From: an uncultured bacterium
Lineage (GTDB): Bacteria; Verrucomicrobiota; Kiritimatiellia; RFP12; UBA1067
NCBI GenBank assembly: GCA_902779865.1
Contig: CACZDG010000007.1
Location: forward strand, 8,958 to 72,957
Direction: 5' to 3'
DNA: 64,000 nt
Shown here one piece after another: positions 3,136 through 62,827 of this stretch. Position 1 is the first letter of the stretch. Each line of letters starts with the position of its first letter. The notes below the pieces were generated by a model. It saw only the letters and a program-made list of their open reading frames with translations, was not told the origin of the DNA and ran no database searches. The position numbers and the translations under genes are program-made.

Positions 3136-3144
3136 TGGTATAAT
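3136..3144 (+). promoter_or_regulatory. Extended -10 box TGGTATAAT upstream of rhaD
   Basis: Exact TGnTATAAT 33 nt upstream of the ATG at 3177. AAAGGAAA Shine-Dalgarno in between. Confidence 0.5.
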
Positions 3145-20035: not shown

Positions 20036-20305
20036 TTCCTTTCGTTAATACACTTCTTCTCAGACAGGGTTATTATACCACATATTTGCCGTGCATGCGA
20101 AGATCATGCAAATGTGGGAAGATACACTTTGAGCATTTCAAAGACACTCCAGATTTTCTCACTTGCAACAGGCGGGTGGATTTGGCATACTATTTGCGTT
20201 GGATTCTTCAGTTGCGCAGGAGGTGTCTTGTGAGTTCCATCAGGTCGGGTGGCCTGGCTCGTAGGCTGCGTGAAAGAGGGGTGCTTCAAGGACGCGGATA
20301 AGGCT

Positions 20306-33371: not shown

Positions 33372-34259
33372 ATGTTTTTTCCATGCAACAGCATTTCCGT
33401 TTACGGTGGCCATGACCGTGGTTGCCGCGTACCTGCGTCCGTCGCGTCGCTTTCCATTGGCGTGCTGAGTTATCACGCCCACAAGACGCTGGCCAGCACG
33501 CTGGATTCATACGGGAAAGGCGGCTTGGTGTCATGCGCGAACGAGGCTTGCATCTTCTTCAATGAGCTCACGCCGGAAGATGAGCGGTTCTGCATGGAGC
33601 GTCCAGGCTGGCATTGTGTCGGTTCCCCGGTCAACCTTGGCCTGCTAGGTGGCATGGACGCCCTTGCGCGCACCATGACAGGAGATTACCTGCTGATGCT
33701 GCAGAACGACTGTCCTTTGGTGGCGGATGCCGTCGCCACGCGCCGTTACCTTGACGAGTCCATCGCTCTGCTTGCAACCGGGAAGGCGGACATAGTGCGC
33801 TGCCGTTCGCGTACGCTCCCAGGTCAGGGTTTCGCCGACTCTAAGAAGTTCGCGCGCTACCATGGGAACGGCCTGTTGCCCGCACTACGCCGAATCCTTC
33901 GCCCGAACAAGACCCGCCGCATGATCGGTCGTGCTCCTTATGCCATTCCGGACGCAGAGCTCAGATTCCCTGGCTACATTACGCGCGAGGGCGATTTCCT
34001 CGTCGTGGACTCTGCCGTAATCAACTTTACTGACCAGCCATTTTTGATTTCCCGACCGCTGATGCTAACCCTCCTTGACTGGGCTAAGGAGCATCCGAAG
34101 AAGCGCACCCTAAACGGATTCCAGGTGATGGAGATCAATCTCAACGTCCCCTGGTGGCGGCACAGCCACTTTAAAGTAGCGGTGGGCGAAGGCCTTTTTA
34201 CCCACTCTCGGCTAGACGGAGGGTTCAGGAAAGGCAAGGCTCGGGAAGTTTTGGTATAA
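33372..34259 (+). CDS. Hypothetical protein (possible GT-A fold glycosyltransferase)
   Basis: Long ORF with coding-like composition. LSIGVLSYHAHKTL and LMLQNDCPL loosely resemble GT2 N-terminal and acidic motifs. No firm match. Confidence 0.35.
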   Translation: MFFPCNSISVYGGHDRGCRVPASVASLSIGVLSYHAHKTLASTLDSYGKGGLVSCANEACIFFNELTPEDERFCMERPGWHCVGSPVNLGLLGGMDALARTMTGDYLLMLQNDCPLVADAVATRRYLDESIALLATGKADIVRCRSRTLPGQGFADSKKFARYHGNGLLPALRRILRPNKTRRMIGRAPYAIPDAELRFPGYITREGDFLVVDSAVINFTDQPFLISRPLMLTLLDWAKEHPKKRTLNGFQVMEINLNVPWWRHSHFKVAVGEGLFTHSRLDGGFRKGKAREVLV

Positions 34260-34260
34260 T
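34252..34260 (+). promoter_or_regulatory. Extended -10 box TGGTATAAT upstream of the response regulator; it contains the upstream gene's TAA stop
   Basis: Exact TGnTATAAT. The ATG at 34278 is 17 nt downstream, with no Shine-Dalgarno in the short leader. Confidence 0.5.
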
Positions 34261-34277
34261 ATTCCTTCGACATACCA

Positions 34278-34946
34278 ATGAACATACTAATCATCGAAGA
34301 CGATGCGGCTACGGCGGAGTTCGTCGCGGGCGCTTTCAAGCAGGTTGGATACGTCACCATGCACGTTGCCGACGGTGAGACCGGTCTCGCCGCAGCGCTG
34401 CACGGGTCTTACGATGCAGCCGTGGTTGACATCATGCTGCCCAAACTCGATGGGCTGGAGGTGATACGTCGTCTGAGGCAGTCAGGGCGAGGACTGCCGG
34501 TAATAGTCCTCTCCGCGCGTGGGAGCGTGGATGCGAAGATACGTGGCCTTGAGGCTGGCGGCGACGACTATCTCGCGAAGCCGTTCTCCGTGGCGGAACT
34601 AGTGGCGCGTGTCCAGGCGCTTCTGCGGCGCGCGAGTCGTGCGGAGGAGACGACCGTGCTCAGGGTGGAAGACCTGGAGATGGACCTGGTGACGCACCGT
34701 GTCACTCGCGCCGGCGAGCCTATCGACCTCCAGCCGCTGGAGTACCAGCTGCTTGAATACCTCATGCGCAACAGGGGGCGCGTGGTATCGCGCAACACGA
34801 TTCTGGACCGCGTGTGGAACTACAGTTTCGATCCGCACACGAACGTGGTGGAGTCGCGGGTTTACCATCTGCGCGAGAAGATCGACCGCAAGTCCGCGCG
34901 TAAGCTTCTCCGCACCGTCAGGGGGTTCGGATATGTCCTCGGCTAG
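34278..34946 (+). CDS. OmpR/PhoB-family response regulator
   Basis: Receiver domain MNILIIEDD...DAAVVDIMLPKLDG...KPF, then a winged-helix C-terminus LEYQLLEYLMRN...TVRGFGY. Confidence 0.9.
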   Translation: MNILIIEDDAATAEFVAGAFKQVGYVTMHVADGETGLAAALHGSYDAAVVDIMLPKLDGLEVIRRLRQSGRGLPVIVLSARGSVDAKIRGLEAGGDDYLAKPFSVAELVARVQALLRRASRAEETTVLRVEDLEMDLVTHRVTRAGEPIDLQPLEYQLLEYLMRNRGRVVSRNTILDRVWNYSFDPHTNVVESRVYHLREKIDRKSARKLLRTVRGFGYVLG

Positions 34947-36348
34947 GGGAGCCCATTCGCTCCGTCGGCACATCGTAGCCGTATCGCTCTCGGCGGGGGC
35001 GCTCCTGTTTCTGCTCGTGGGTTGTCTGATCCTTTTCGTGTCATGGTCGTTCATGAAGTCTGAATACGAGGAATTCCTCTCACGGTGCACGTCCGACCTC
35101 GTGGGCGAATATGCCGAGTCGAAGGGCGACTTGAAGAAGATGCGGCACTTCTTCGACGAAGATGTGGAGGAGCACGGCGCAGACCGTATTTTCCTGATGA
35201 TTACAGATCCGCATGGACGGAACGTACTTGACGCCTGCGCGGACAAGACCATCCAGCGCGCCATGGTCACACGCGCAAGGCGGGAACATGCTTCCTACCG
35301 CCTTAGCAAGGAAAGCGCGCTGCCGCACCGCAACCGCATCGTCCTACGCGTCAGGACTACGGTTCTGCCAGACGGCTTCAAACTCTCCGTCGGCCACGAC
35401 GTGACTGCCGACGAGCAGTACCTGCTATTCCTCGCCATTGTGCTTGGCGGCGCGTTCCTGCTTTCGCTCCTGCTTGGCGGCTGGGTGGCGGACTGGCTGG
35501 CGCGGCGGTTCGTCCGGTCGTTGCAGAACGTCTGCGATGCCGCCAACCGCATCAAGGCTGGCGAATGGTCCACGCGGGTCAAGCCGTCTCATGAAAGCCG
35601 CGAGTTAATCCTGTTGGAGGACGCCTTCAACACGATGTGTGACCAGAACGAGAAGACCATCACCGAGCTCAAGACTCTCACCGACGACATCGCCCACGAC
35701 CTGCGTACGCCGCTCACGCGCCTCCGCACCGCCGCGGAGTTCGCGGCCATGGGCGGCGAGTTGAAGCGTCCTCTGCCGGAGATGCTCTTCGAGCAGTCCT
35801 CTGACATGCTGGAGATGATCAACACGATGCTTGAGATATCGCAGGCCGGAAACAGGATCGATGGCACTCCGCGCGAGGACATTGACCTCTGCGCTTTCCT
35901 GCGTGAGACGGCGGATCTTTATTCGACCGTCCTCGACGACCAGGGTCTGAGGTTGGCGCTCAACGTGCCTGATGCGCCAGTTGTGTTTTCCGGGCACCGT
36001 GGCCGTCTGCAGCGACTCGTCGGAAACCTGCTAGACAACGCAATCAAGTTCACTCCTCGCGGCGGCACTATCACAATCGCGCTTGAACATGTACGGGATG
36101 CAGTCGTCCTTCGCGTTGCCGACACCGGCTGCGGCATCGCCGCAGAAGATCTGCCGCACGTATTCCGCCGCTTCTGGCGTGCGGATTCCAGCCGTTCGCT
36201 GCCGGGCAACGGGCTCGGTCTTGCTTTGGTGAAGGCGATTGTCACCTCATACGCCGGCACCATCACGTGTGACTCGTCGCCCGGGCGTGGAACAGCATTC
36301 TCGGTCTCGTTGCCGCATTTGGCGCTTGTTTCTTGTCAATGTCTGTGA
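34933..36348 (+). CDS. Sensor histidine kinase (HAMP-HisKA-HATPase)
   Basis: H-box DIAHDLRTPLT, N-box LLDNAIKFTP, G-boxes DTGCGI and GNGLGLALV, and two TM segments. ATG at 34933 overlaps the end of the response regulator gene. Confidence 0.88.
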   Translation: MSSARGAHSLRRHIVAVSLSAGALLFLLVGCLILFVSWSFMKSEYEEFLSRCTSDLVGEYAESKGDLKKMRHFFDEDVEEHGADRIFLMITDPHGRNVLDACADKTIQRAMVTRARREHASYRLSKESALPHRNRIVLRVRTTVLPDGFKLSVGHDVTADEQYLLFLAIVLGGAFLLSLLLGGWVADWLARRFVRSLQNVCDAANRIKAGEWSTRVKPSHESRELILLEDAFNTMCDQNEKTITELKTLTDDIAHDLRTPLTRLRTAAEFAAMGGELKRPLPEMLFEQSSDMLEMINTMLEISQAGNRIDGTPREDIDLCAFLRETADLYSTVLDDQGLRLALNVPDAPVVFSGHRGRLQRLVGNLLDNAIKFTPRGGTITIALEHVRDAVVLRVADTGCGIAAEDLPHVFRRFWRADSSRSLPGNGLGLALVKAIVTSYAGTITCDSSPGRGTAFSVSLPHLALVSCQCL

Positions 36349-36360: not shown

Positions 36361-37170
36361 ATGAGTTCTACACTTCAGAAGTATATTTTGCCTGGTGGCA
36401 GCATGTCATGGTTGGCGGCGCCACTTCTTTTTGCGATGTGCGTCACGGCGCTGTTCGTGACGTGGGTTGTGATGGAGCCGGCTGCGTTGCGCCATGCGTT
36501 CGACATGGACGGTCGTTCCACGTTCGAGCTGGCCACGATCCCGTTTTACGCCGCGATCATCCCCATCGTCTGGTGGAAGTGCCCGTTCACGGGTTCGCGC
36601 CGTCGTCGGACGTTGCTGTGCTTGGCGGTGACGTGCGTCGCGTTCATGGCCGTTGTCAAGGAACTAGACTGGCACCTTGCCGCAATGCAGCAGCTGTTCC
36701 CGTCGATCGTCGGGGCGGACGGCAACGTACACGGTCTCGTCAAGCCTAACGGTGCGCCGCTCACCGGCACGCCGTTCAAGATGCGTTTCCTTACGAACGG
36801 TGCCGTGCCTTTTGCGGCAAAGGCGTGTGTGCTGCTATACTTCGGCGCATTCTTCGGAGTGTTCGCGGTGTTGCTTGCGTACTATTCCGTGAAGTTGTTC
36901 AAGGGGTTCTTCCGGCTGCACCCGACGGCGTGGAGCGTGTGCTTTTTCGGAGGGTCTGGTGTGATGGTGGCGGTGATGGATCGCTTGCCGGCTTGGTATC
37001 GCCATGTGAACGGCTTGGGGAAGGATGAAGTCATTTCCAATTCCTTTGGTTCCTTCTGCACGTGTTTCGAGGAAGGCGGCGAGATGATGATAGCCATTTT
37101 CGCCATTCTTGCCATTCTCCAGGCGCATTCAATATATACGCGCCAGATAAAACCCCACTGCGAACTTTGA
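36361..37170 (+). CDS. Polytopic membrane protein, unknown function
   Basis: Multiple hydrophobic segments, for example LAAPLLFAMCVTALFVTWVV and ACVLLYFGAFFGVFAVLLAYY. No recognised motif. Confidence 0.5.
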   Translation: MSSTLQKYILPGGSMSWLAAPLLFAMCVTALFVTWVVMEPAALRHAFDMDGRSTFELATIPFYAAIIPIVWWKCPFTGSRRRRTLLCLAVTCVAFMAVVKELDWHLAAMQQLFPSIVGADGNVHGLVKPNGAPLTGTPFKMRFLTNGAVPFAAKACVLLYFGAFFGVFAVLLAYYSVKLFKGFFRLHPTAWSVCFFGGSGVMVAVMDRLPAWYRHVNGLGKDEVISNSFGSFCTCFEEGGEMMIAIFAILAILQAHSIYTRQIKPHCEL

Positions 37171-37193: not shown

Positions 37194-38807
37194 ATGCATA
37201 TTGGCTGGTCGTCACATGTCTATCCGCTTGAGGCGGCGGATTTTGCCGACGTGCCTGACTATGCCGGCAATCCGATTCCCGAAAACGAGCTTCCTCCCGA
37301 CAAGGTGATTCTCTTCATCCGCAAGGGATGTCCAGATTCGCTGGTGCGCGGTCGGGATGAGATTGCGCGGTGCGAGGGTGGCACGGTGGACGTGCGAGTG
37401 GTGTTCGAGCCGACGGTTGCACGGTGGAACCTGCCAGGCACTCTGGTGCGCGTGTGCCGTAACCGCTACCGTTTCCACGGTTCGCACGTGTACCATATCT
37501 CGGCTGAGTCCGTTCGGGACATGAAGCTTGAACGAGCCATTCGCACCATCGAAAACCCGCATGACCGTGATGGACAGGACAGGGTGGCGAGCATGATAAG
37601 GCTTTTGGAGAGCCTGAAACGTGAAGGCTACCGCGATGACAAGCCAATCGTGGTGATGCTCTGCCGTACGGGCGGCCTTGAGGATTCGCTCAGGCAGGGG
37701 CATCACCGCGTCAGCGCATGTCTCGCATGTGGCATCGATCGCATGGCCGTAGAATTCGCCGCAGCGGGTGTTGCGCCTTGGCAGCGGTGGGGTGTTTTTA
37801 TGCGCGTTGCGATGCTTGCCGCCGTATTTGCAGTGTTTGCCGGGGTTGTGTCGGCGGCGTTGGCGTTATGGCCGTCGATACCGTGGGTGGCGACGATGGA
37901 TGTGCGGGGATTGCCGAAGATTTCCCCGATAGGCGAGTTCATTCGTCCCCGCATTCCGGAGGAACTGAGTGGCATTACACACGTGGATGGCGACAGCTAC
38001 TACGCAGTAAGCGATGACGGCAGTGGCGTCTGGCCGATGCAGATCGGCATCGATCGGACGACCGGTGTGATCACGAACTGCGTGATGGGGCGTAACGTGC
38101 GTGTGGGCAAGGACAACGAGGGCATTGCTTGGGACCCGCAGAGCCGCACCGTGTTCGTTACGGACGAGGCGACGCATGTGATCAGCGAAGTCAACCCCGA
38201 GACTGGACGTCTCGTGGCAGAGGTGCAGCTTCCAGAACACCAGTGGAAAAGTCGCAGAAACCGTGGACTGGAGGCGTTGGCCCTGTCGCCAGACGGGGAG
38301 TTCCTCTGGACGGCGAACGAGGAGGCACTTCCCGGAGACGGGAGGCCTTCGAGCGTGGAAAATGGGACTACAGTGCGCCTAACGCGGTTCCGCCGCATTG
38401 ATAATGTAAAGTGGGAGCATGATGGGGAATGGGCTTATCTTACCGACGCCATTGGCGGCGGGAAAACAAAGCGGATGCGTTCTGGAGTGTCCGACCTATG
38501 TGCGTTGGAGGATGGGACTCTTCTTGTCCTCGAACGCGAGTTGAGCAGAAAGGGCGTCGATTCCGCGTACCGTGCGCGTCTCTACGCCGTGAGGCCAATA
38601 CGTGAAACGTCAATTGACATGGAGCGTCCCATTGCCAAGAAACTCCTTTTCGGCGCGGACACAGGCACGGCAAACTACGAGGGAGTGTGTCAAGGCCCCG
38701 TGCTGGATAACGGCGACCATACACTAGTCATGGTTTCCGATGGTGGTGACGCCGACGATGAACGGCTGTACGTACTCCGCATGGCGGTAGTACAGGAGGT
38801 ACGGTGA
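37194..38807 (+). CDS. ParB/sulfiredoxin-like N-terminal domain - TM - phytase-like esterase domain protein
   Basis: N-terminal LKREGYRDDKPIVVM....LRQGHHRVSACLACGIDRMAVEF carries the ParB/Srx GHHR signature. TM segment VAMLAAVFAVFAGVVSAALAL. C-terminal EGIAWDP, GLEALALSPDGEFLWTANEEAL and VSDLCALEDGTLLVLEREL resemble the esterase-like phytase family. Confidence 0.55.
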   Translation: MHIGWSSHVYPLEAADFADVPDYAGNPIPENELPPDKVILFIRKGCPDSLVRGRDEIARCEGGTVDVRVVFEPTVARWNLPGTLVRVCRNRYRFHGSHVYHISAESVRDMKLERAIRTIENPHDRDGQDRVASMIRLLESLKREGYRDDKPIVVMLCRTGGLEDSLRQGHHRVSACLACGIDRMAVEFAAAGVAPWQRWGVFMRVAMLAAVFAVFAGVVSAALALWPSIPWVATMDVRGLPKISPIGEFIRPRIPEELSGITHVDGDSYYAVSDDGSGVWPMQIGIDRTTGVITNCVMGRNVRVGKDNEGIAWDPQSRTVFVTDEATHVISEVNPETGRLVAEVQLPEHQWKSRRNRGLEALALSPDGEFLWTANEEALPGDGRPSSVENGTTVRLTRFRRIDNVKWEHDGEWAYLTDAIGGGKTKRMRSGVSDLCALEDGTLLVLERELSRKGVDSAYRARLYAVRPIRETSIDMERPIAKKLLFGADTGTANYEGVCQGPVLDNGDHTLVMVSDGGDADDERLYVLRMAVVQEVR

Positions 38808-39721
38808 TGAAGCGTAATTTCAACGACGCTGCCGTCCTCCGGGCGATTGAGGAAGGGTATGGCGTTTCGGTGCGGACGCTTAAAGCGTTGGATGGCCATG
38901 CGCATTCGTTCAACTTCCGGGCTGAGACCGCTGACGGAGAGGTTTTTGAGGTCAAGTGTTTTCCGGCGGTGCATGAAGAGAGGTTCAAGTGCCTGGTGGC
39001 GCATACGGCACCGTCGGACAATCATCTTGCCGCAACGCGACTCTTCGGTGGGAAGATACTTGGCTTCGACGGCTGGAAGGTGATTGCGCTCAGGTGGGTT
39101 CCAGGTTCAGAACTCGGCCCAGATGAGCTGTCAGACGAGGAGTTGGACGCTTTCCTTGCCGCATACGCAGAGTTCCTGTTGCACCTTTCAGACGATGGTG
39201 CGGTGTTGCCGGTCAGGGACTACCTCGCGCTCAAGCGGATGTTGCTGAAGCGCCTTCATGGAGGCAATGCGCCGGGGATCGTCCGTGAACTGAACGAGAT
39301 GCGGGACGATATGCTCATCCTTGCGGCGGAGCATAGGCGCATCATCCACGGCGATTTGCACAAGGGGAATCTACGCTTCGACGCTGGGACCGTAAGCGGT
39401 TTCTTTGATTTGGAGGAACTGCGTTTCGGCACGCCGGCGGAAGACCTTGTACGTTATGTAGTTTGTCGCGAAGAGCATCGGAGGTGGTATGACCCGCTGG
39501 GACGGCGGAGGCTGATCGTTGCGTTTCGCCGTATACTTGCGCGGACGTCCTACTCGCGTTCCGAATGGATGTTTGCCATAAACGGTTATCTCCTTAGGAA
39601 ACTCGCCAAAAAGGTAAAGTCGAACCGTTTGCCGGTTTGGCGGCGTATAAACCTACGCGCTCGGCTGGTTTTCTACCGTGCGTTGCGTAAAGCCGTTGAA
39701 AGAGAGGTTGCTAATGGCTGA
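38807..39721 (+). CDS. Aminoglycoside/choline-kinase-type phosphotransferase (APH family)
   Basis: Catalytic loop IIHGDLHKGNLRFDAGTVSGFFDLEELRFGTPAEDL is typical of the APH/ChoK fold. The start overlaps the upstream stop. Confidence 0.7.
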   Translation: MKRNFNDAAVLRAIEEGYGVSVRTLKALDGHAHSFNFRAETADGEVFEVKCFPAVHEERFKCLVAHTAPSDNHLAATRLFGGKILGFDGWKVIALRWVPGSELGPDELSDEELDAFLAAYAEFLLHLSDDGAVLPVRDYLALKRMLLKRLHGGNAPGIVRELNEMRDDMLILAAEHRRIIHGDLHKGNLRFDAGTVSGFFDLEELRFGTPAEDLVRYVVCREEHRRWYDPLGRRRLIVAFRRILARTSYSRSEWMFAINGYLLRKLAKKVKSNRLPVWRRINLRARLVFYRALRKAVEREVANG

Positions 39722-40505
39722 TCGTGTGAACGTGCTATGTGCAAAATGGGGAACGAAATACGGCGCGGACTATATAAATCGTCTGTATGCGGGGGTTGCG
39801 AAACATCTAAGCCGTCCGTTTCGGTTCGTCTGTGCCACGAACGAACCTGATGGCATACGTCCTGAAGTGGAATGTGCGCCATTGGACGCGAATCCGCACG
39901 TGAAGAACCGGGGCTGGCCAAACATCCACGCGAAGCTAACCCTTTTTCGGCGTGGGTTCGCCGACCTTGAGGGACCTACGTTGTTCCTTGACGTGGACGT
40001 TCTCGTGACGGGTCCCATTGACAAGTTCTTTGATTACCATCCTGGCGACTTCTGCATCATCCACAACTGGGTGGAACGGCGCAAGGCGTTGTTCCACCGT
40101 CCGAAAATCGGCAATTCGTCGTGTTTCCGCTTCGACGCTGGGTCGGATGCGGCGCATGGCGTGTATGAGTGCTTCCTTCGCGACAAGGACGATCCCTCGC
40201 TGGACATGTATTTCCGCAAAGGCTCGCAGAAGTTCCAGACGCGTGCGATGTTTGAACGTGGTAGGGTATGGTGGTGGCCGGAAGACTGGGTGTGCTCATT
40301 CAAGCGGCAGTGTATTCCGTTGTGGCCTCTGAACCATTTCCTCGTACCGCGCCCTCCAAAGACTGCGTCCGTAGTCGCATTCCATGGAAACCCCGACATC
40401 CCAGAGGCGATCGCAGGCTTCTATTGGCACAAGGGCAAGAAGATACCGACTCACCTTACTTGCCGCCCCACGCCGTGGGTAAAGGAGCTTTGGGAAAACC
40501 CATGA
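39714..40505 (+). CDS. Hypothetical GT-A-like glycosyltransferase (DxD = LDVDVL)
   Basis: VNVLCAKWGTKYGADYINRLYAGV N-terminus and FLDVDVLVTGPIDKFFDY. Sits in the glycopolymer operon. Assignment is weak. Confidence 0.4.
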   Translation: MADRVNVLCAKWGTKYGADYINRLYAGVAKHLSRPFRFVCATNEPDGIRPEVECAPLDANPHVKNRGWPNIHAKLTLFRRGFADLEGPTLFLDVDVLVTGPIDKFFDYHPGDFCIIHNWVERRKALFHRPKIGNSSCFRFDAGSDAAHGVYECFLRDKDDPSLDMYFRKGSQKFQTRAMFERGRVWWWPEDWVCSFKRQCIPLWPLNHFLVPRPPKTASVVAFHGNPDIPEAIAGFYWHKGKKIPTHLTCRPTPWVKELWENP

Positions 40506-41851
40506 AATCAGAACTCCATCTGTTCGTGCTCTGGGAGAAGGCGCGCCGAGTCGAGTCGAGGATATTGGAAGACCTCGGGCGCCAGAAGGACATCGAGGTT
40601 ATCGGAAAGTGGGAGTTTGCATTCTCCGGTCCGGCTGCGGTTGCGTATCCGGCGTTCTACGGCGGGAAGAAGCCATTGGACGGACGCCTCAAGGTGCGCA
40701 AGTGCGGCGGCGGCGGATTTCTGCTGATCGTGGTGCGCAACTTGAATCCCAGCTACGGTTCGCGCTGGGCCCGCGATGAAAAGTACTACATCGCCAACGA
40801 GTTGATGTATGATCTCAAGGTGCGATACCGCGAGTGGGCAGGACGCAAGCACCGCGTACATAGCACGACGAGCCAGAAGGAGTTCGCCCGTGACATCTTC
40901 CTGCTCACCGGTCACACGGCTGACGAGTGGGAGCGAGGCGTGCCGAACGACATCCGCCTCAACATTCCGGAGAAAGCCGAATGGAGGATGGTAGTTGACG
41001 GCGTGGGGGCGGACATGGGGCTTTCCGGTTGCCGTGTCCTCATGGAGAACAAATACATCAACGACGTGTTCTTCGAGGGGCAGTTCAAGGGGCGCGATGC
41101 CGTAATCAAGTGCTCTTCAAAGTGTGCGTGGTCGATTGGAAACGAGTTCCGTCTCGCTTCGCGCCTTTTCGCCGCCGCGCCGTCAGTCGTTGCCGAGCCG
41201 CTTGCGGTTTGGACGTCGGACGACGGGCGTAGGGCGTTTGTCGTGACGGAAAAGGTGTTGGGGTCGTCGCTCACGGAACTTTTGGAGCGAGGCGTCACGG
41301 ATGCGCAGGCGGATGGTTTCGCAGAGGATATCCTTGCGCTGGCGGGAGCGCTTGAGCGTACGGGCATCCTCCACCGTGACATCTACACCGACAATTTTCT
41401 CCTTGGAGCGGACGGACATTTGAAGGTGATTGACTTCCAGATGTCCATCGACCGAAACGACTACCGCGAGGATCCATGGGTGGCTTCGCACCCGAAGTTC
41501 CTCTACGTGGTATTCGGCGTGAACCACAATACGCCCTGCGGATGTTGGGACGACCGTGCGGCCCTTGATGCCGTTCTGGCTCTTTTACCGGCTACCGATG
41601 CCGTAAAACAGGCGCGTCGCAAGTTGGCGTCGATGCCGGAAATTGCGTTCACCGCACGACCTCCGCTTGAAGCGCGATTGACATTGGGCGCGTATGCCAT
41701 CAGCCTAATGATTCAGTCGCACGTGCCGTGGCGTTCGCGCAAGCGGCGCAACCAAGCGCGCAAGCGCCTCGATACCATACGTGCATGTGGCGGCACGGAC
41801 GTTGACGGACGCGATCCAGATGCCACGTGTGCAGGGAAGGCGGCGCCATGA
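40502..41851 (+). CDS. Protein-kinase-like fold protein (Kdo/WaaP/RIO-like) with unknown N-terminal domain
   Basis: GILHRDIYTDNFLLGADGHLKVIDFQMS is a kinase catalytic and DFx-like segment. ATGA overlap with the upstream gene. Confidence 0.55.
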   Translation: MKSELHLFVLWEKARRVESRILEDLGRQKDIEVIGKWEFAFSGPAAVAYPAFYGGKKPLDGRLKVRKCGGGGFLLIVVRNLNPSYGSRWARDEKYYIANELMYDLKVRYREWAGRKHRVHSTTSQKEFARDIFLLTGHTADEWERGVPNDIRLNIPEKAEWRMVVDGVGADMGLSGCRVLMENKYINDVFFEGQFKGRDAVIKCSSKCAWSIGNEFRLASRLFAAAPSVVAEPLAVWTSDDGRRAFVVTEKVLGSSLTELLERGVTDAQADGFAEDILALAGALERTGILHRDIYTDNFLLGADGHLKVIDFQMSIDRNDYREDPWVASHPKFLYVVFGVNHNTPCGCWDDRAALDAVLALLPATDAVKQARRKLASMPEIAFTARPPLEARLTLGAYAISLMIQSHVPWRSRKRRNQARKRLDTIRACGGTDVDGRDPDATCAGKAAP

Positions 41852-42597
41852 TTTACGCAGCCATTATTTTCGTTGTGGCCGTGGCGATCTACGCACTCTG
41901 CAAATGTACGTGGTGGTGGCCGCGTTGGCCGCGTGGCGTGCCGTCGTTCCTGATGCTCCATTCCGTTTCAGACGAGGTGGTGGATGCGTCATGCCCCAAC
42001 AACACGATCCGGCCGCATGAGCTGGAGGCGTTGATCGTCCGGCTGCTCAAAGGCGGCTACCGGTTCCGGACGTTCGCGGATGCGGCTACCGATCCTGGAC
42101 CGCGCGACGTTGTCCTTACGTTCGACGATGGCTACGTTGACAATTACGTGGAGTTGTTGCCGATCCTGAAGCGCCGCGGCGTTCCGGCAACCTGTTTCGT
42201 CACAAGTCGGTTTGACGATCCGCGATTCCTGTCCCGCGAGCAACTGCGTGAGATGGACGCTAGCGGTCTTGTCGAGATTGGGGGACACACCTCGGGGCAT
42301 TGCGTGCTCACGTCCGTCGGCATTGCCGAGGCGCGCGAGCAGATTCACGCGAACAAACACGACCTCGAGTCGATCCTTGGGCATCAGATTGTTTCGTTCG
42401 CCTATCCCTGCGGTGGCGAGAACGATGACATAGTGGCAGAGGTCAGGGGGGCGGGATACAGATTCGCCGCCGCGATGGTTAAGAAGATGCGCCCCGTGGG
42501 GACAGATCCCTACCGAATCCACCGTCAGATCATTCCGCGCGGCAAGAAGACGTGGCAGTCCTATTTGTTGGCCACGCGGGGGAGGTACAAAATATGA
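41848..42597 (+). CDS. Polysaccharide deacetylase (NodB homology domain), membrane-anchored
   Basis: VLTFDDGYVDNYVELLPILKRRGVPATCFV, GGHTSGH, SFAYPCG. N-terminal TM helix. ATGA overlap. Confidence 0.85.
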   Translation: MIYAAIIFVVAVAIYALCKCTWWWPRWPRGVPSFLMLHSVSDEVVDASCPNNTIRPHELEALIVRLLKGGYRFRTFADAATDPGPRDVVLTFDDGYVDNYVELLPILKRRGVPATCFVTSRFDDPRFLSREQLREMDASGLVEIGGHTSGHCVLTSVGIAEAREQIHANKHDLESILGHQIVSFAYPCGGENDDIVAEVRGAGYRFAAAMVKKMRPVGTDPYRIHRQIIPRGKKTWQSYLLATRGRYKI

Positions 42598-43607
42598 GAA
42601 TCGCTGTTTATAAGGATACGTTTGCCGCCCGGCGCGGGGCGGATATGGCCGTGCAGTTCCTAATCGACGGCCTGCGCGAGCGCGGGCACGACGTGGTGGT
42701 TGTTACGGATGAGGATGTTGATGTGCGGGGACGCATTTCCGGCTGCGATGTCTGCATTGCCGCTGGGACGAACGAAATACTGTCGCTGACGGATGGCGGG
42801 CGGAATCGTCCGCCAGTCAAGACGATCCTCCAGTTACACACGCACCCGCTCTATCCCTTTCGTCATTGGCTTCGTCGGTGGCGGCGGTGTCGCGCCATCC
42901 GTCGCGCGATTGCGCTGGCCGACGCGGTGCAGGTGCTTGTGCCTTCTCATGAGGACGTGCTTCGGCGGAAGGTAGGGTATCGGGGGCGCGTGTACGTGAT
43001 TGGCAACGCCTCGCGTTTTGGGACGTGTATTTCGTCTTCTGATGACGGGCAGACGATTATCTATCCCGCCGCACTGAACGCCGACAAGCGCCAAACCCTC
43101 CTGATCGACGCCTTTGCGCGTGTGGCGGGCGATTTCCCCGGGTGGCGCGTCGTTCTTTATGGGACGGGGAAGGCATCGTATGAGAAAAAGCTCCGTGCGC
43201 GCGTGGCGGCGGCGGGGCTGGGAGACCGAGTCGTGTTCGCGGGGTACTGCAATGATCTGACGGCGGCGTATTCTTCTTGTTCATTTGTCGCTTTCCCGTC
43301 CGCCAACGAGGGCGGCCCACTGACTGTCGTCGATGCGGGGGTGTTTCGCAAGCCGGTGCTTGGTCTCACGGAGACACCGGCGGTTGCGGAGATCATTACT
43401 GACGGTGAAACAGGAATGCTGCGCGAGGGGACAGTGGCGACATACGCGGAGGGTCTGGCTCTGCTGATGCGCGATGCGGATTTACGTAGGCGGTTGGGAG
43501 AAGCGGCCCAATGCCGTTTTTCGGCGCTCTATTCCCGCACCGCTTTCCTTAATAGCTGGGAAAACGCCTTGAAAGATGTTTGCGGAAATGGAAAAGCAAT
43601 AGTTTGA
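42594..43607 (+). CDS. Glycosyltransferase family 4 (GT-B)
   Basis: FPSANEGGPLTVVDAGVFRKPVLG carries the E-x7-E region typical of GT4. ATGA overlap. Confidence 0.8.
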   Translation: MRIAVYKDTFAARRGADMAVQFLIDGLRERGHDVVVVTDEDVDVRGRISGCDVCIAAGTNEILSLTDGGRNRPPVKTILQLHTHPLYPFRHWLRRWRRCRAIRRAIALADAVQVLVPSHEDVLRRKVGYRGRVYVIGNASRFGTCISSSDDGQTIIYPAALNADKRQTLLIDAFARVAGDFPGWRVVLYGTGKASYEKKLRARVAAAGLGDRVVFAGYCNDLTAAYSSCSFVAFPSANEGGPLTVVDAGVFRKPVLGLTETPAVAEIITDGETGMLREGTVATYAEGLALLMRDADLRRRLGEAAQCRFSALYSRTAFLNSWENALKDVCGNGKAIV

Positions 43608-43632
43608 TGTGGCGGTGCAGACCAAAATAGGG

Positions 43633-43638
43633 TATAAT
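43633..43638 (+). promoter_or_regulatory. -10 box TATAAT (internal promoter candidate before the TagF-like gene)
   Basis: GGGTATAAT lies 32 nt upstream of the ATG at 43671, in the only intergenic gap of the operon. Confidence 0.35.
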
Positions 43639-43670
43639 AACGACGGTTTGCCAAAGTAAAAGCCTAGAAC

Positions 43671-45017
43671 ATGTCCGCAAAACTGACAATCATACGTCTT
43701 GTGACCGCGCTGATTCCCGTCAAGCGCGTCCGGCGTAGGTTACGCGACCGCTGGATGGCCGCGGCCCGTGAGCGTCGCCTTGAACGCACGCTGCCAGTGG
43801 TCCGCGCGCGTTACGCGGCGCACGAGGCGGAGTGCAGGGCGAAGCTTGCGCGCGGAGAGCGACTGCGCGTCGCCTTCCTCGTTTGCGATGCGTCGATGTT
43901 CTCGGCGGAGCCGGTCTTCGTTCAGATGAAGGACGACCCGCGATTCGACTGCTTCATCGCGGTTGCGCCTCGTGTCACCCGTGGTGACGCCTTTCTGCGC
44001 GACACGTTGAAGAAGACGTTTGACACGTTTGACAAGCGTTATCCGAAGCAGGTGCGATCGCTTTATGATCCCGATTCCGGGAAGGCGATGCCGCTGGAGG
44101 CGGACGTATTGTTCTCCACCGTGCTGTACGAAGACCAGACGCTTCCCGACTACACGGTAGAACGGTTGTCCAGGCGTGCGTTGGTGGCAATCCTCTACTA
44201 CGGCTACGGCGGGTTGTTTTTCACGAACGAGAAGAAGACCCCGTTCCTCCCTAACGTCGTGTTCGCATGGCGGTACTTCGTGTCAAACGAAGCGACGCGC
44301 ACGATGAGCGTGGCGAGAAATCCGGCGCTTGCCGGGAACGTGTGCGTTGCGGGGTACTGCAAGATGGACAGGCTCGCGTCGCTTCCGCAGAGGCGGCGTG
44401 AACGTAGGCGCGTGATACTGTGTCCGCACCACACAATCGACAAGGAGACGGATGGACTTGCGCTTTCGACGTTCCTTATCCATGCTGATTTGTTCCTGAA
44501 GTTGCCGGAGCTTTTTCCGGAAATAGATTTCGTGTTCCGTCCGCACCCGCTGCTCTTCCCGCGCCTCGCGACGGCAAAGTGGTGGGGGGCGGAGAAGACG
44601 GAAGCATACCGAGCGAAGATGGAGTCGTTCCCCAACGTCGAGTTCCAGCAGGGTGGAGACTACTTCGAGACGTTCGCGGATTCCGACGCATTGATCCATG
44701 ACTGCGGTTCGTTCCTAGCCGAATACTTCTACACCGGAAGACCGCAGTGCTATCTCCTGGCGGACGACAAGACGGTTGAGCAGCAGTTTCTGCCGTTCAG
44801 CCGCACTCTGCTGGAGCACGTGGAAAGGGCTTATACCGACGACGACGTTGTGGCGTTCATCCGCCGAGTGGTCGTGGAAGGCAACGATCCAGGCAAGGCG
44901 GAGCGCGATGCGTTCGCGGAACGCGAGGTCTGCGTAAACCACCCTCATGCGTCGGACGCGGTGCTGGCGGCCGTGATGGATGGAATTGAAAGCAAGGAAG
45001 GAAGCAAGACAAAATGA
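43671..45017 (+). CDS. CDP-glycerol glycerophosphotransferase family protein (TagB/TagF-like)
   Basis: VILCPHHT, FVFRPHPLL and SDALIHDCGSFLAEYFYTGRPQCYLL match the TagF C-terminal pattern (HP... / D.S.....f...kP). Adjacent to tagD. Confidence 0.6.
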   Translation: MSAKLTIIRLVTALIPVKRVRRRLRDRWMAAARERRLERTLPVVRARYAAHEAECRAKLARGERLRVAFLVCDASMFSAEPVFVQMKDDPRFDCFIAVAPRVTRGDAFLRDTLKKTFDTFDKRYPKQVRSLYDPDSGKAMPLEADVLFSTVLYEDQTLPDYTVERLSRRALVAILYYGYGGLFFTNEKKTPFLPNVVFAWRYFVSNEATRTMSVARNPALAGNVCVAGYCKMDRLASLPQRRRERRRVILCPHHTIDKETDGLALSTFLIHADLFLKLPELFPEIDFVFRPHPLLFPRLATAKWWGAEKTEAYRAKMESFPNVEFQQGGDYFETFADSDALIHDCGSFLAEYFYTGRPQCYLLADDKTVEQQFLPFSRTLLEHVERAYTDDDVVAFIRRVVVEGNDPGKAERDAFAEREVCVNHPHASDAVLAAVMDGIESKEGSKTK

Positions 45018-45448
45018 GCAAGACGATAATCGGATACACCAGTGGGGTTTACGACCTCTTCCACATCGGCCACTTGAACCTGCTGAAAAATGCGCACGGG
45101 CTTTGCGACAAACTGATCGTGGGCGTGTCGGTGGACGAGCTTGTGGCGTACAAGCACAAACGCGCGGTCATCCCGTTCGCGGAGCGGCTTGAAATCGTCC
45201 GCTCCATCAAGTACGTTGACGCGGCAATTCCCCAGGACGACCTCGACAAGTACAAGATGTGGGAGAAGCTTCACTTCGACGTTCTCTTCGTCGGCGACGA
45301 CTGGTTCAACACGCCGAGTTGGAAGGAGATGGAGGCGAAGTTCGCAACAGTTGGCGTACGTGTCGTGTATTTCCCGCGCACGAAGGGGACGAGTTCTACG
45401 CTTCTTTCCGCGACGCTCAAGAAACTGCGCGAGGGAGGCGTGTCATGA
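45014..45448 (+). CDS. tagD: Glycerol-3-phosphate cytidylyltransferase (TagD family)
   Basis: IIGYTSGVYDLFHIGHLNLLKNA (HxGH), IKYVDAAIPQ, FVGDDW, VVYFPRTKGTSSTLL. Colinear with B. subtilis TagD as recalled. Confidence 0.85.
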   Translation: MSKTIIGYTSGVYDLFHIGHLNLLKNAHGLCDKLIVGVSVDELVAYKHKRAVIPFAERLEIVRSIKYVDAAIPQDDLDKYKMWEKLHFDVLFVGDDWFNTPSWKEMEAKFATVGVRVVYFPRTKGTSSTLLSATLKKLREGGVS

Positions 45449-46398
45449 GTCTGCTCACCCGCAAGTACGAGAAGGGGCGCCTTGTCACGCGGTTTTGCGG
45501 CGTGCGCGTGTGGCGCGCAGCGGACGATCCGGGGCTTTCATTGCAGTCGCAGTTGTTGCGGCGCGAGCTGTTGATGGCCGCAGACGTTTCCAACATGCCG
45601 CCGGCGCACGGTTATGCGCGCGACGTACAGCTCGCGGGCGTTGTGCTTTTGAAGGAAGTCTTGCGCGTTGCGCACGAGAACGGATTTCATCCATGGACGA
45701 TTAGCGGAAGCCTTTTGGGGACAGTGCGGCACGGAGGCCGTTTCGTGCCGTGGGACGATGACGTTGACCAGGGGATGATCCGCGATGAGTACGACAGGTT
45801 CTGCGAAGTGTTCAATGAGAAATGCCGTGATGGCTATTACGCCTGGCGGCGTTTCTCTCGCAAGTGGAACCAGATCAAGGTGTCACATCGCGAATTGCCG
45901 AAAGACATTACGTCGTCTGTGATGTCGTACGATCTCTACCACTCCCCGTTGCCGACGCTGAAGGAGAAGCACGCCCTCTTCATGAAAGTCAAGGACGCGC
46001 AGGAGCGCAATGCGGCGCGGTTCGATCCGCAGGCCGATGACGCTACGCACCGTGCGGCGCTTGATTCCGCGCGCCGTGACTGGATCATGGACGGAAAAGA
46101 ACCAGCGCCCCCGGAGTCGAAGCCGGCGGTTCTTCGCGGCATCGAGTTTTCTACTCCTGACTGGGTGAAGGAAGCGGTCTATGACTACGACGACATCTTT
46201 CCGCTTCGTCCCGCGACGTTCGAGGGCGTACCCGTGATGGTGCCGAACGATCCGGAGACCGTCTTGACCTACAACTACGGCGACTGGGCCGGTTGGCCCG
46301 GACGCCTGCAACCGCATCATCCGGCCTCGCGGTTCAACATGGAGAAGGCACTTGCATTGCGCAAGTTCCTTAAGAAGCACGGGGAGGTCAAGTCGTGA
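45445..46398 (+). CDS. LicD-family phosphotransferase
   Basis: ISGSLLGTVRHGGRFVPWDDDVDQGMIRDEYDRF is the canonical LicD motif. ATGA overlap. Confidence 0.8.
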   Translation: MSLLTRKYEKGRLVTRFCGVRVWRAADDPGLSLQSQLLRRELLMAADVSNMPPAHGYARDVQLAGVVLLKEVLRVAHENGFHPWTISGSLLGTVRHGGRFVPWDDDVDQGMIRDEYDRFCEVFNEKCRDGYYAWRRFSRKWNQIKVSHRELPKDITSSVMSYDLYHSPLPTLKEKHALFMKVKDAQERNAARFDPQADDATHRAALDSARRDWIMDGKEPAPPESKPAVLRGIEFSTPDWVKEAVYDYDDIFPLRPATFEGVPVMVPNDPETVLTYNYGDWAGWPGRLQPHHPASRFNMEKALALRKFLKKHGEVKS

Positions 46399-46802
46399 TA
46401 GTTGGCTACACAACAGGCGTGTTCGACATGTTCCACGTAGGGCATCTCAATCTGCTTGCGCGGGCGCGTGAGCAATGCGACCGGCTTATCGTGGGCGTTT
46501 CAACGGACGAGGTGGTGCTCGGCTACAAGAAGCACGCGCCCATCGTCCCCTACGCGGAAAGGGTTGCTATCGTGAAGGCGATACGTTACGTAGATGAAGT
46601 CGTGCCGCAGACGTCGATGGATAAATTCGCCGCGTGGGAAAAACTGCACTTCAACCGCCTCTTCCACGGTAATGACTGGAAGGGGAGCGCGATGTACAAT
46701 GAAGTCGAGGCGAAGTTGAAGTCCGTCGGCGTGGAGGTAGTCTATTTCCCCTACACGCAGGGCACGAGCTCCACGCTTCTCGCCGAGCGTTTGAGGGGCT
46801 AG
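46395..46802 (+). CDS. Second TagD-family cytidylyltransferase paralog
   Basis: IVGYTTGVFDMFHVGHLNLLARA, IRYVDEVVPQ, FHGNDW, VVYFPYTQGTSSTLL. GTGA overlap start, with GGGGAGG Shine-Dalgarno. Confidence 0.85.
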   Translation: MIVGYTTGVFDMFHVGHLNLLARAREQCDRLIVGVSTDEVVLGYKKHAPIVPYAERVAIVKAIRYVDEVVPQTSMDKFAAWEKLHFNRLFHGNDWKGSAMYNEVEAKLKSVGVEVVYFPYTQGTSSTLLAERLRG

Positions 46803-46914: not shown

Positions 46915-47205
46915 CTTTCGAGGAACTAGGCGGGTTTCGGACATTGTGTCCGGGCCTAGGAATAACCGGGCTCAATGAAAGTTGACCCGCAAGACGTTTC
47001 AAGGAAGTGAGTGGTGAGGAGCGCGAAACTCAAATCGTTCCAATCTGCTGAATGGCATAACATGTGTGCCGACCGTGTTCACGCGGGTGCAATAAAGTGA
47101 AGCGGTACGATACCACCGGAAAGAACGGATCAACCGGGTAGCTCCGGTCGGAAGGGTGCGGAAGTCCGCGCCTAGAAGAGAAAAGCCAAAGGAAAAAGAA
47201 CAACA
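46915..47205 (+). promoter_or_regulatory. About 290-nt untranslated leader, candidate structured RNA
   Basis: No ORF. Hairpin CTAGGCGGGTTTCGGACATTGTGTCCGGGCCTAG at 46925-46959. The motif GTCCG(G/C)GCCTAG recurs at 47164-47175, allowing alternative pairing with the CTAGGCGGG arm. Confidence 0.35.
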
Positions 47206-47997
47206 ATGAAGAAACTCATTATTGGTGCTGCTGTTGCAACCATCGCTGCTGGTGCGTTCGCGGCGGCATGCAGTGAAGTTAAGGATTGTGCGGCTTGGGA
47301 TGTGAAGTTCAATCTCAAGACGCTCACCCCCAAGAAGACCAATTGCGGTAAGGATGCATGTGGTGAATCGCTCGGTTCGGTTTACTACCTTGATTCTGTT
47401 TCTCGCAAGATTGAAGGTTACATGTGGGCATGTGAGTATGATTGCGCGGAGAGCGATGAGTACTACATCACACTGTGGGATAAGAAGAACAAGAAGGCTG
47501 TTGTCGCTTATAGCGCAGAAGAAACTCAGACTGTTCCTGTCCCTGCCGATGATCTCCTCGTTTATGGCAAGAAGGCAACCAAGGTCGCTGGCACGTTCGT
47601 GTTCGAGGGGCTGATGGATGATGTCGGCGATGAGGCGTTCAACATTACGGCCGCAGGTATCAACGGCAAGTTCCAGAAGGGTGATAAGTGCTACATCAAG
47701 TCGCTGTCTGGCTATGCTGCTGGTAAGGTGAAGCTCTATGTGCCTACTGCCAAGACACCGAAGGGTTCGAAGGGTACTCTCTGCGAGGATCCTGAGCCTG
47801 TTGATCCTTGCGAGGATGTCCTTCTTCGTGCGGCGACCTTCTGCGATGCGTGCTGCTGGGAGACGTGGTGTGATGACACTTACGACTACGGTGAGACGCT
47901 TGTTCCGGCCGCTGGAACTTGGTCTATGAAGTACAACAAGAAGGTGTCCAAGGGGACGAAGTCGATGTCCCAGTTGATTCCTAGCTATGCTCTCTAA
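47206..47997 (+). CDS. Secreted cysteine-rich protein, family A copy 1 (paralog of 56720-57502)
   Basis: Signal peptide MKKLIIGAAVATIAAGAFAAA. 13 Cys by my count. Shares with copy 2 the blocks KIEGYMWACEYDC/KIKGVFWGCDC, CWETWC/CECAEGG, AAGTWSMKYNKK/ASGTWKLKYNAA and IPSYAL/FPSYVK. Confidence 0.7.
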   Translation: MKKLIIGAAVATIAAGAFAAACSEVKDCAAWDVKFNLKTLTPKKTNCGKDACGESLGSVYYLDSVSRKIEGYMWACEYDCAESDEYYITLWDKKNKKAVVAYSAEETQTVPVPADDLLVYGKKATKVAGTFVFEGLMDDVGDEAFNITAAGINGKFQKGDKCYIKSLSGYAAGKVKLYVPTAKTPKGSKGTLCEDPEPVDPCEDVLLRAATFCDACCWETWCDDTYDYGETLVPAAGTWSMKYNKKVSKGTKSMSQLIPSYAL

Positions 47998-62818: not shown

Positions 62819-62827
62819 TGGTATAAT
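62819..62827 (+). promoter_or_regulatory. Extended -10 box TGGTATAAT upstream of the MraY-like gene
   Basis: Exact TGnTATAAT 22 nt upstream of the ATG at 62850. AAAGGAAAA Shine-Dalgarno. Confidence 0.5.

Follow-up and report, generated by a model that had tools for sequence, protein, structure and literature searches.

In published capsule loci of Gram-negative bacteria, among them those of Actinobacillus pleuropneumoniae (Cps3D/Cps7D), Neisseria meningitidis and Bibersteinia trehalosi, TagF-like polymerases are found together with a predicted glycerol-3-phosphate cytidylyltransferase (PMC5974469). Here we describe a chain of ten genes (g1 to g10, positions 37194-46802, + strand) in a 64,000-nucleotide stretch of DNA (the window) from an uncultured rumen bacterium of the Kiritimatiellia. 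The chain forms an operon whose probable role is to decorate a sugar chain of the cell envelope with small alcohols linked through phosphate, glycerol phosphate being the most likely one. The unit is made of two modules that meet at a gap of 63 nucleotides (nt): module A (g1-g6), which is variable among relatives, and module B (g7-g10), which is autonomous. Gene order across related loci indicates that the core pair of module B is the cytidylyltransferase g8 with the LicD-family protein g9, and that g10, a second cytidylyltransferase, is accessory. No new class of chemistry is involved, since teichoic-acid-like polymers and LicD decorations are both established in Gram-negative bacteria; the system is a divergent, lineage-specific version of established chemistry and, as such, fairly ordinary.

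The Gram-negative capsule loci share with this operon a diderm host, a TagF-like protein with a predicted glycerol-3-phosphate cytidylyltransferase, glycosyltransferase activities and assembly in the cytoplasm (PMC5974469). A first-pass annotation of this DNA had named TagD, TagF and LicD as hallmarks of Gram-positive wall teichoic acid and of phosphocholine or ribitol-phosphate decoration, with an implied surprise at their presence in a probable diderm; the combination is there, but these precedents make it less of a surprise. The present locus differs from them in that g7 is a stand-alone protein of 448 amino acids (aa) under the Pfam threshold, in that group 2 capsule export genes (kps/ABC) are missing, and in that LicD, a second cytidylyltransferase and two kinases have been added, in a gut commensal of the Planctomycetes-Verrucomicrobia-Chlamydiae (PVC) group. 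With the wall teichoic acid core of Bacillus subtilis and Staphylococcus (TagD/TarD, TagB, TagF) it has in common a HxGH cytidylyltransferase beside a TagF-family-like GT-B protein, that is, a CDP-alcohol donor combined with a phosphotransferase. In contrast to that core, the cytidylyltransferases here fall outside the clade of TagD and score under the TIGR01518 cut-off, TagO, TagA and TagGH are missing, and LicD occupies the place where a TagB-type primase would stand.

LicD decoration of Haemophilus lipooligosaccharide is classical. In the lic1 locus (LicA-LicB-LicC-LicD) of Haemophilus influenzae and Streptococcus pneumoniae a cytidylyltransferase feeds a LicD-family transferase and the operon includes an APH-fold kinase, as is also the case here, and in Haemophilus the decorated glycan belongs to a diderm envelope. 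Unlike lic1, the present operon has cytidylyltransferases of the HxGH (TagD/ECT) type and not of the LicC GT-A type, has no LicB permease, and encodes a kinase that is neither choline-kinase-like nor co-occurring with the cytidylyltransferases across genomes. The waa operons of Escherichia coli encode WaaG (GT4), WaaO/R/J (GT8) and the kinases WaaP and WaaY. A GT4 protein, a GT8-like protein and two kinase-fold proteins, one of them above the PF06293 cut-off, recur here, but heptosyl- and 3-deoxy-D-manno-octulosonic acid (Kdo) transferases do not, and the likeness is one of families and folds only. A two-component system that shares an operon with an envelope-modifying enzyme, as one probably does here, is generally known from pmrCAB-type arrangements.

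The features of the ten-gene chain are the following.

37194-38807, + strand: g1, cytoplasmic N-terminal domain, transmembrane helix and Phytase-like domain (PF13449, 2.5e-43)
38804-39721, + strand: g2, APH-fold kinase with the catalytic loop HGDLHKGN (PF01636, 68.5 bits, 9.5e-19)
39714-40505, + strand: g3, GT-A (GT8/GT24-like) glycosyltransferase of 263 aa, previously unannotated, assigned from its AlphaFold2 fold
40502-41851, + strand: g4, N-terminal domain of about 160 aa and a protein-kinase-like/WaaP-Kdo-kinase-like domain (Pkinase, PF06293)
41848-42597, + strand: g5, membrane-anchored NodB-type polysaccharide deacetylase with the motifs TFDDG and HTSGH (PF01522, 95 bits, 3.8e-27)
42594-43607, + strand: g6, GT4 glycosyltransferase (PF00534, 96 bits, 2.8e-27)
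43608-43670, + strand: 63-nt gap at the module boundary, with a GGTATAAT box at 43631-43638
43671-45017, + strand: g7, candidate TagF-like GT-B phosphotransferase, divergent, 448 aa, with the motifs FRPHP and HDCGSFLAEY, assigned from fold and remote similarity
45014-45448, + strand: g8, HxGH cytidylyltransferase with HIGH and RTKGTSST (CTP_transf_like, 74 bits)
45445-46398, + strand: g9, LicD-family phosphotransferase with PWDDDVD (PF04991, 86 bits against a cut-off of 22.6)
46395-46802, + strand: g10, second, accessory HxGH cytidylyltransferase with HVGH and YTQGTSST (CTP_transf_like, 67 bits)

According to the open reading frame (ORF) list and an analysis of the junctions, the ten ORFs are linked by overlaps of stop and start codons, which may couple their translation. 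Seven junctions are 4-nt overlaps (ATGA or GTGA), the one between g1 and g2 (GTGATG) amounting to 4 nt or 1 nt according to the start codon chosen, and the 63-nt gap is the only gap in the chain. The first-pass annotation had described this chain and its gap correctly, with overlaps of 1-4 nt; the latter range is too narrow, as g2 and g3 overlap by 8 nt (ATGGCTGA). At its 3' end the chain is clean, being followed by a 403-nt non-coding stretch that has its own promoter. At its 5' end, it had been taken to start at 37194, which is too late: upstream of g1 stand genes for a response regulator, a histidine kinase and a membrane protein, none of the gaps exceeding 23 nt, and the transcription unit probably starts at this two-component system (34278).

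The case for two modules and a core pair comes from a gene-by-gene comparison of 14 species-level loci with close LicD relatives. In every one of them g8 lies directly upstream of LicD, in 10 of them g7 lies 5' of g8, and in only 7 is g10 found 3' of LicD; it is missing from L039, L041, L042, L044 and L048 even though their contigs extend past LicD. Even near-identical strains differ in this respect: L003 and L002 are 99% identical over 12.6 kb, and a 345-nt in-frame deletion removes g10 from the former (L003 12722-12730 against L002 12732-13139), which could be a natural strain-level loss or an assembly artefact. Seven loci have g10 without an APH kinase and two have the kinase without g10. 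In L042, L044 and L048 the pair of g8 and LicD occurs with no kinase nearby, and in L035 and L043 the whole g7-g10 cassette stands alone amid unrelated housekeeping genes. The genes of module A are shuffled, replaced or fused in relatives: a hexapeptide acetyltransferase takes the place of the NodB and GT4 proteins, the APH kinase is fused with a GT10 protein, and the membrane protein upstream of g1 (u0) is fused with a GT1 protein.

The two cytidylyltransferases are 56% identical, and each is 38-39% identical to TagD. They are the sole TagD-type cytidylyltransferases of the genome, in which the remaining PF01467 matches are CoaD and NadD, and no NCBIfam model scores higher than TIGR01518 for either. 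A tree built from relatives of 19 loci and four solved references, including the TagD proteins of B. subtilis and S. aureus, places g8-type and g10-type proteins as sister clades (99/99 support) in a group of their own, apart from TagD, the N-terminal domain of ethanolamine-phosphate cytidylyltransferase (ECT-N) and the cytidylyltransferase domain of Fom1. They thus appear to be lineage-specific sister paralogs and not representatives of two ancient functional clades, and the expectation that one would fall with TagD and the other with ECT or choline-phosphate cytidylyltransferase (CCT) is not supported. An ECT-like assignment was rejected, as human ECT tops the PDB list of both proteins only since the scores of its two domains sum; taken domain by domain, the solved protein closest to g10 is TagD, with 67 bits against 54.5 for ECT-N. 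Both proteins had been credited with HxGH and RT(K/Q)GTSST motifs, and g8 does have RTKGTSST, whereas g10 reads YTQGTSST, with Tyr in place of Arg as in the Fom1 cytidylyltransferase domain. This Fom1-like PYT motif had raised the question of a phosphonate donor for g10 (2-aminoethylphosphonate or 2-hydroxyethylphosphonate), a candidate we set aside: no phosphoenolpyruvate mutase above cut-off is found in the 92%-complete genome, which argues against phosphonates.

Both g8 and g10 are under strong purifying selection. Across species their protein identity is 88-97% for g8 and 86-95% for g10, at four-fold sites that are only about 45% identical and near saturation; on account of these sites a recent horizontal transfer was rejected as the reason behind the 97% conservation of g8. 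The assignment of g9 to the LicD phosphotransferases, already made in the first-pass annotation, is borne out by its 86 bits against PF04991. Its sole relative in the PDB is FKRP, and its best NCBIfam neighbour, the Mycoplasma glycolipid cholinephosphotransferase Mf1, is sub-threshold (42 vs 225 bits).

The reading that we favour, with some reserve, is that of an operon for the building and decoration of an envelope glycan, in which g7-g10 form a CDP-alcohol cassette and g1-g6 tailor the acceptor. In this scheme g8 would use CTP and a readily available alcohol phosphate, most likely sn-glycerol-3-phosphate, to form a CDP-alcohol, and LicD (g9) together with the TagF-like GT-B enzyme (g7) would move the alcohol phosphate onto a sugar acceptor. 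As export signals are lacking in all transferases of the operon, these reactions are expected at the cytoplasmic face of the inner membrane. The occurrence of the g8-LicD pair without a kinase nearby, like that of the g7-g10 cassette on its own, argues for a substrate drawn from central metabolism, and this expectation, combined with the affinity of g8 and g10 to TagD, makes sn-glycerol-3-phosphate the most economical guess. The accessory paralog g10 would be functional where it is present, providing either a second donor or extra capacity. The strain-variable module A would build and tailor the acceptor by means of its GT8-like and GT4 glycosyltransferases, its NodB deacetylase and its two kinases; g2 and g4 more probably phosphorylate sugars, in the way of WaaP, than free alcohols.

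The families and folds found in module A are in keeping with such tailoring enzymes. The first-pass annotation had named a GT-A-like protein, a second kinase-like protein, a NodB deacetylase and a GT4 protein, and all four names hold, the last two by the Pfam matches listed above. For g3, which has no Pfam match and whose 637 homologues are, every one, labelled hypothetical, an AlphaFold2 model (predicted local distance difference test score, pLDDT, 89.6) retrieved glycogenin, UGGT and LgtC in Foldseek at 4e-8 to 5e-7 and TM-scores of 0.5-0.6, and both D93 and D95 of its DxD motif are invariant. The kinase domain of g4 reaches 31.7 bits with Pkinase, exactly its cut-off, and 26.3 bits with the Kdo/WaaP family PF06293, whose cut-off is 21.3; its catalytic loop HRDIYTDN and its IDF motif are intact, and its homologues in L001 and L019 have no N-terminal domain. 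The kinase g2 had been described as having an APH/choline-kinase fold. The APH part of this description is sound, but neither Pfam nor a PDB sequence search gave a choline-kinase match, and its PDB neighbours are weak matches to antibiotic kinases that act on sugar hydroxyls. In L002 its homologue is fused to a GT10-like glycosyltransferase domain.

The tenth gene, left unnamed in the first-pass annotation, is g1, a transmembrane protein with the Phytase-like domain PF13449. Its N-terminal domain (about 200 aa, 37194-37800) gave no Pfam match even at E<=5 and no meaningful match to PDB sequences, and a ParB/sulfiredoxin label for it could not be confirmed in that Pfam search. In relatives the domain reappears as a separate gene or as a fusion beside kinases or g7 (L002 4017-4601; L021 6-434; L036 4922-5578; L046 2849-3448).

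The assignment of g7 is the most remote in the operon. Its AlphaFold2 model (pLDDT 91.8) has a GT-B fold, and in Foldseek TarL (8va1) is found at 6e-10. Of 29 homologues, 16 match PF04464 weakly (E<=1), the best at 1.5e-7. When aligned by hhalign with the Pfam-positive TagF-like domain encoded elsewhere in the same genome (contig C145), g7 gives 92% probability over 144 columns, covering the C-terminal domain with its donor-binding motifs, FRPHP and D(C/W)(G/S)...EY. Four His residues are invariant in the family (H253, H254, H292 and H343), H292 lying in the conserved C-terminal motifs. The family hardly occurs outside this genus, the rest of the phylum having distant relatives only, and neither a family profile search nor a single-sequence search of PDB sequences gave a meaningful match. 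"TagF-like" is thus a reasonable but remote assignment, and the first-pass label of a glycerophosphotransferase stands as to its GT-B fold and distant TagF similarity only. With this proviso, the operon does join a TagF-like protein, LicD and two TagD-type cytidylyltransferases with kinases, glycosyltransferases and a deacetylase, as had been claimed.

The locus on C145 (1028-6952), outside the window, is a second one for phospho-head groups. It encodes a LicC-like nucleotidyltransferase, an APC-type permease, a 630-aa membrane protein with the C-terminal TagF-like domain just mentioned, and a large membrane protein of the sulfatase/LtaS-like kind. A single-sequence PDB search with this TagF-like domain gave no meaningful match.

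Several observations weigh against the scheme of a glycerol phosphate cassette. In the genome scan g7 scores 11.9 bits, under the PF04464 threshold of 22.1 bits, and it has no Pfam match at E<=0.01. The closest folds to its model are UDP-GlcNAc 2-epimerases (2.5e-12), with TarL behind them. Its N-terminal Rossmann domain has no invariant His that would match the catalytic base of TagF, where the N-domain catalytic histidine is H444 (H300 in TarL; PMC5974469). At 88.8 and 90.4 bits, g8 and g10 are well short of the TagD equivalog cut-off of TIGR01518 (165.4 bits), and together with their position outside the TagD clade this leaves glycerol-3-phosphate as the most economical guess only. No flippase, ABC exporter or initiating transferase is found in or near the operon, so the acceptor may be lipid A-core, a glycolipid, or a glycan linked to undecaprenyl diphosphate and made elsewhere. 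On the side of expression, the promoter motif described below has a purely statistical basis, and the RNA contigs are of low depth, from metatranscriptome libraries with possible DNA content.

The first of the rival explanations concerns the two cytidylyltransferases, which may act on the same substrate, g10 being a dosage or back-up copy or a heterodimer partner of g8 (compare the tandem domains of ECT), so that a single CDP-alcohol is made. Their identity and sister position in the tree are in favour of this, as are the dispensability of g10 in many genomes and in one strain and the retention in both, at least partly, of HxGH and of the (K)xK region that aligns with K44/K46 of TagD. A redundant copy, however, is unlikely to stay as conserved between species as g10 has done while synonymous sites became saturated, and the many genomes that have g8 without g10 exclude an obligate heterodimer. 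We consider a shared substrate unlikely.

A similarly low probability is given to a lipid-anchored product in place of a decorated polysaccharide: a glycolipid or lipid A-core bearing a phospho-alcohol head group, or a short poly(alcohol phosphate) chain of the lipoteichoic-acid-like kind, primed by LicD and extended by the TagF-like protein. Such a product would fit L035 and L043, where g7-g10 stand apart from any polysaccharide locus, and the lack of flippase, exporter and initiating transferase; it would also agree with Mf1 as the nearest NCBIfam model of g9 and with the general resemblance of the GT4, GT8-like and WaaP-like proteins to the lipopolysaccharide-core (waa) operons. Against it, the similarity to Mf1 is far under the cut-off, and glycan-tailoring genes (NodB, glycosyltransferases) adjoin the cassette in the window. 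A bolder variant, which we regard as speculative and rather improbable, is that a teichoic-acid-like chain, an oligo- or poly(alcohol phosphate), is built by the cassette directly on lipid A-core or on a membrane glycolipid, again with LicD as primer and the TagF-like protein as extender, the kinases phosphorylating sugar sites, the two-component system acting as a switch and g10 supplying a second head group. If true, a PVC diderm would have an analogue of lipoteichoic acid, in which g10 gives a previously undescribed second head group.

The scheme of the first-pass annotation, with one branch from g8 through CDP-glycerol to the TagF-like protein and another from the APH kinase, taken as choline-kinase-like, through g10 to LicD in the style of lic or CCT/ECT, seems improbable too: that the paralogs are distinct clades under purifying selection suggests non-redundant roles, their signature loops differ (YTQ in g10, RTK in g8), g10 outscores g8 against ECT and the Fom1 cytidylyltransferase domain, and an APH-fold kinase is present, but the second branch is unsupported because g8 and LicD are always adjacent and g10 and the kinase occur separately, LicD doing without g10 in at least five species and one near-identical strain, while the kinase lacks any choline-kinase match and in a relative forms a fusion with a glycosyltransferase domain, and g8 and g10 are sisters and not anciently separated.

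Under the preferred scheme of two modules, transcription would run from a promoter in front of the two-component system through g10, and the 63-nt gap would supply a second promoter. The upstream features are the following.

34252-34260, + strand: TGGTATAAT, promoter-like -10 box, 18 nt 5' of the response-regulator start
34278-34946, + strand: OmpR-type response regulator (Response_reg and Trans_reg_C), likely the first gene of the transcription unit
34933-36348, + strand: sensor histidine kinase (HAMP, HisKA, HATPase_c)
36361-37170, + strand: u0, multi-pass membrane protein that matches no Pfam family

The ATG of the histidine kinase at 34933 overlaps the stop of the response regulator, and u0 is separated from g1 by 23 nt. 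In L002 a 630-aa protein that has GT1-type domains carries a homologue of u0 (48% identity) as its N-terminal part. Just 5' of the two-component system (33372-34259) lies a gene for a 295-aa protein with no Pfam match, which on a reading of its sequence resembles a GT-A/GT2-type glycosyltransferase and may belong to the same glycan system.

The word GGTATAAT very probably represents this organism's extended -10 promoter element, implying short leaders. The genome contains 254 copies of it, compared with about 20 for permuted words. A T stands directly in front of 228 of these copies, and among the copies examined 84% have a further T at -3; the word lies upstream of ORF starts at a median distance of 31 nt. 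The window holds five copies where 0.38 are expected (3137-3144; 20072-20079 on the - strand; 34253-34260; 43631-43638; 62820-62827). The word or a one-mismatch variant precedes 31624 and the response regulator (34252) and sits in the 63-nt gap (43630), and no box of this type, one-mismatch variants included, was found before g1. In the relatives L036, L039, L041 and L002, (T)GTATAAT or GGTATACT boxes precede g7. A generic scan for sigma-70 promoters and terminators gave counts not above shuffled controls, and no Rfam family matched anywhere in the window.

Sequences of the operon are present in RNA libraries, and co-transcription is likely, though not proven. Contigs assembled from these libraries bridge the junctions u0/g1, g3/g4, g4/g5, g6/g7, g7/g8 and g8/g9, the first of them being crossed by contig X2 (36726-37330). 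One contig joins g7, from 43652 onwards, to different upstream DNA, and this break marks the module boundary; two others cross the 63-nt gap.

The genome, of 4.3 Mb and 92% completeness, encodes LpxC, and the bacterium is therefore taken to be a diderm with lipid A, its diderm nature having been supposed before. Homologues of the genes come from Kiritimatiellae, Verrucomicrobia and the rumen RUG/RGIG metagenome-assembled genomes. Kiritimatiellae are abundant in rumen and gut communities and are uncultured there. From the cassette one would expect their envelope to bear alcohol groups in phosphodiester linkage, groups which would influence surface charge, recognition by phages and the immune system, and antigenic variation at the strain level; the latter would fit with the shuffled modules and the strain-level loss of g10. 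The analysis also yields the first fold-level annotations for three lineage-specific families with no or sub-threshold Pfam coverage (g3, g7 and the g8/g10 cytidylyltransferase clade) and a likely promoter motif for this genome.

Elsewhere in the window, its start (3-3075) encodes a VIT-domain protein followed by an exosortase of the EpsH family, and 20249-22468 encodes a 739-aa protein in which a Ser/Thr protein kinase domain is fused to a FGE-sulfatase (sulfatase-modifying-factor-like) domain. Downstream of g10, the leader of a low-GC operon (46947-47475) reaches a summed depth of 66.9 in one bovine metatranscriptome, against 0-9 elsewhere. Loose ends with adapter sequence lie at 46947 and 47193, and the former fits a transcription start shortly after a TTGCAT-N17-TACAAT promoter.

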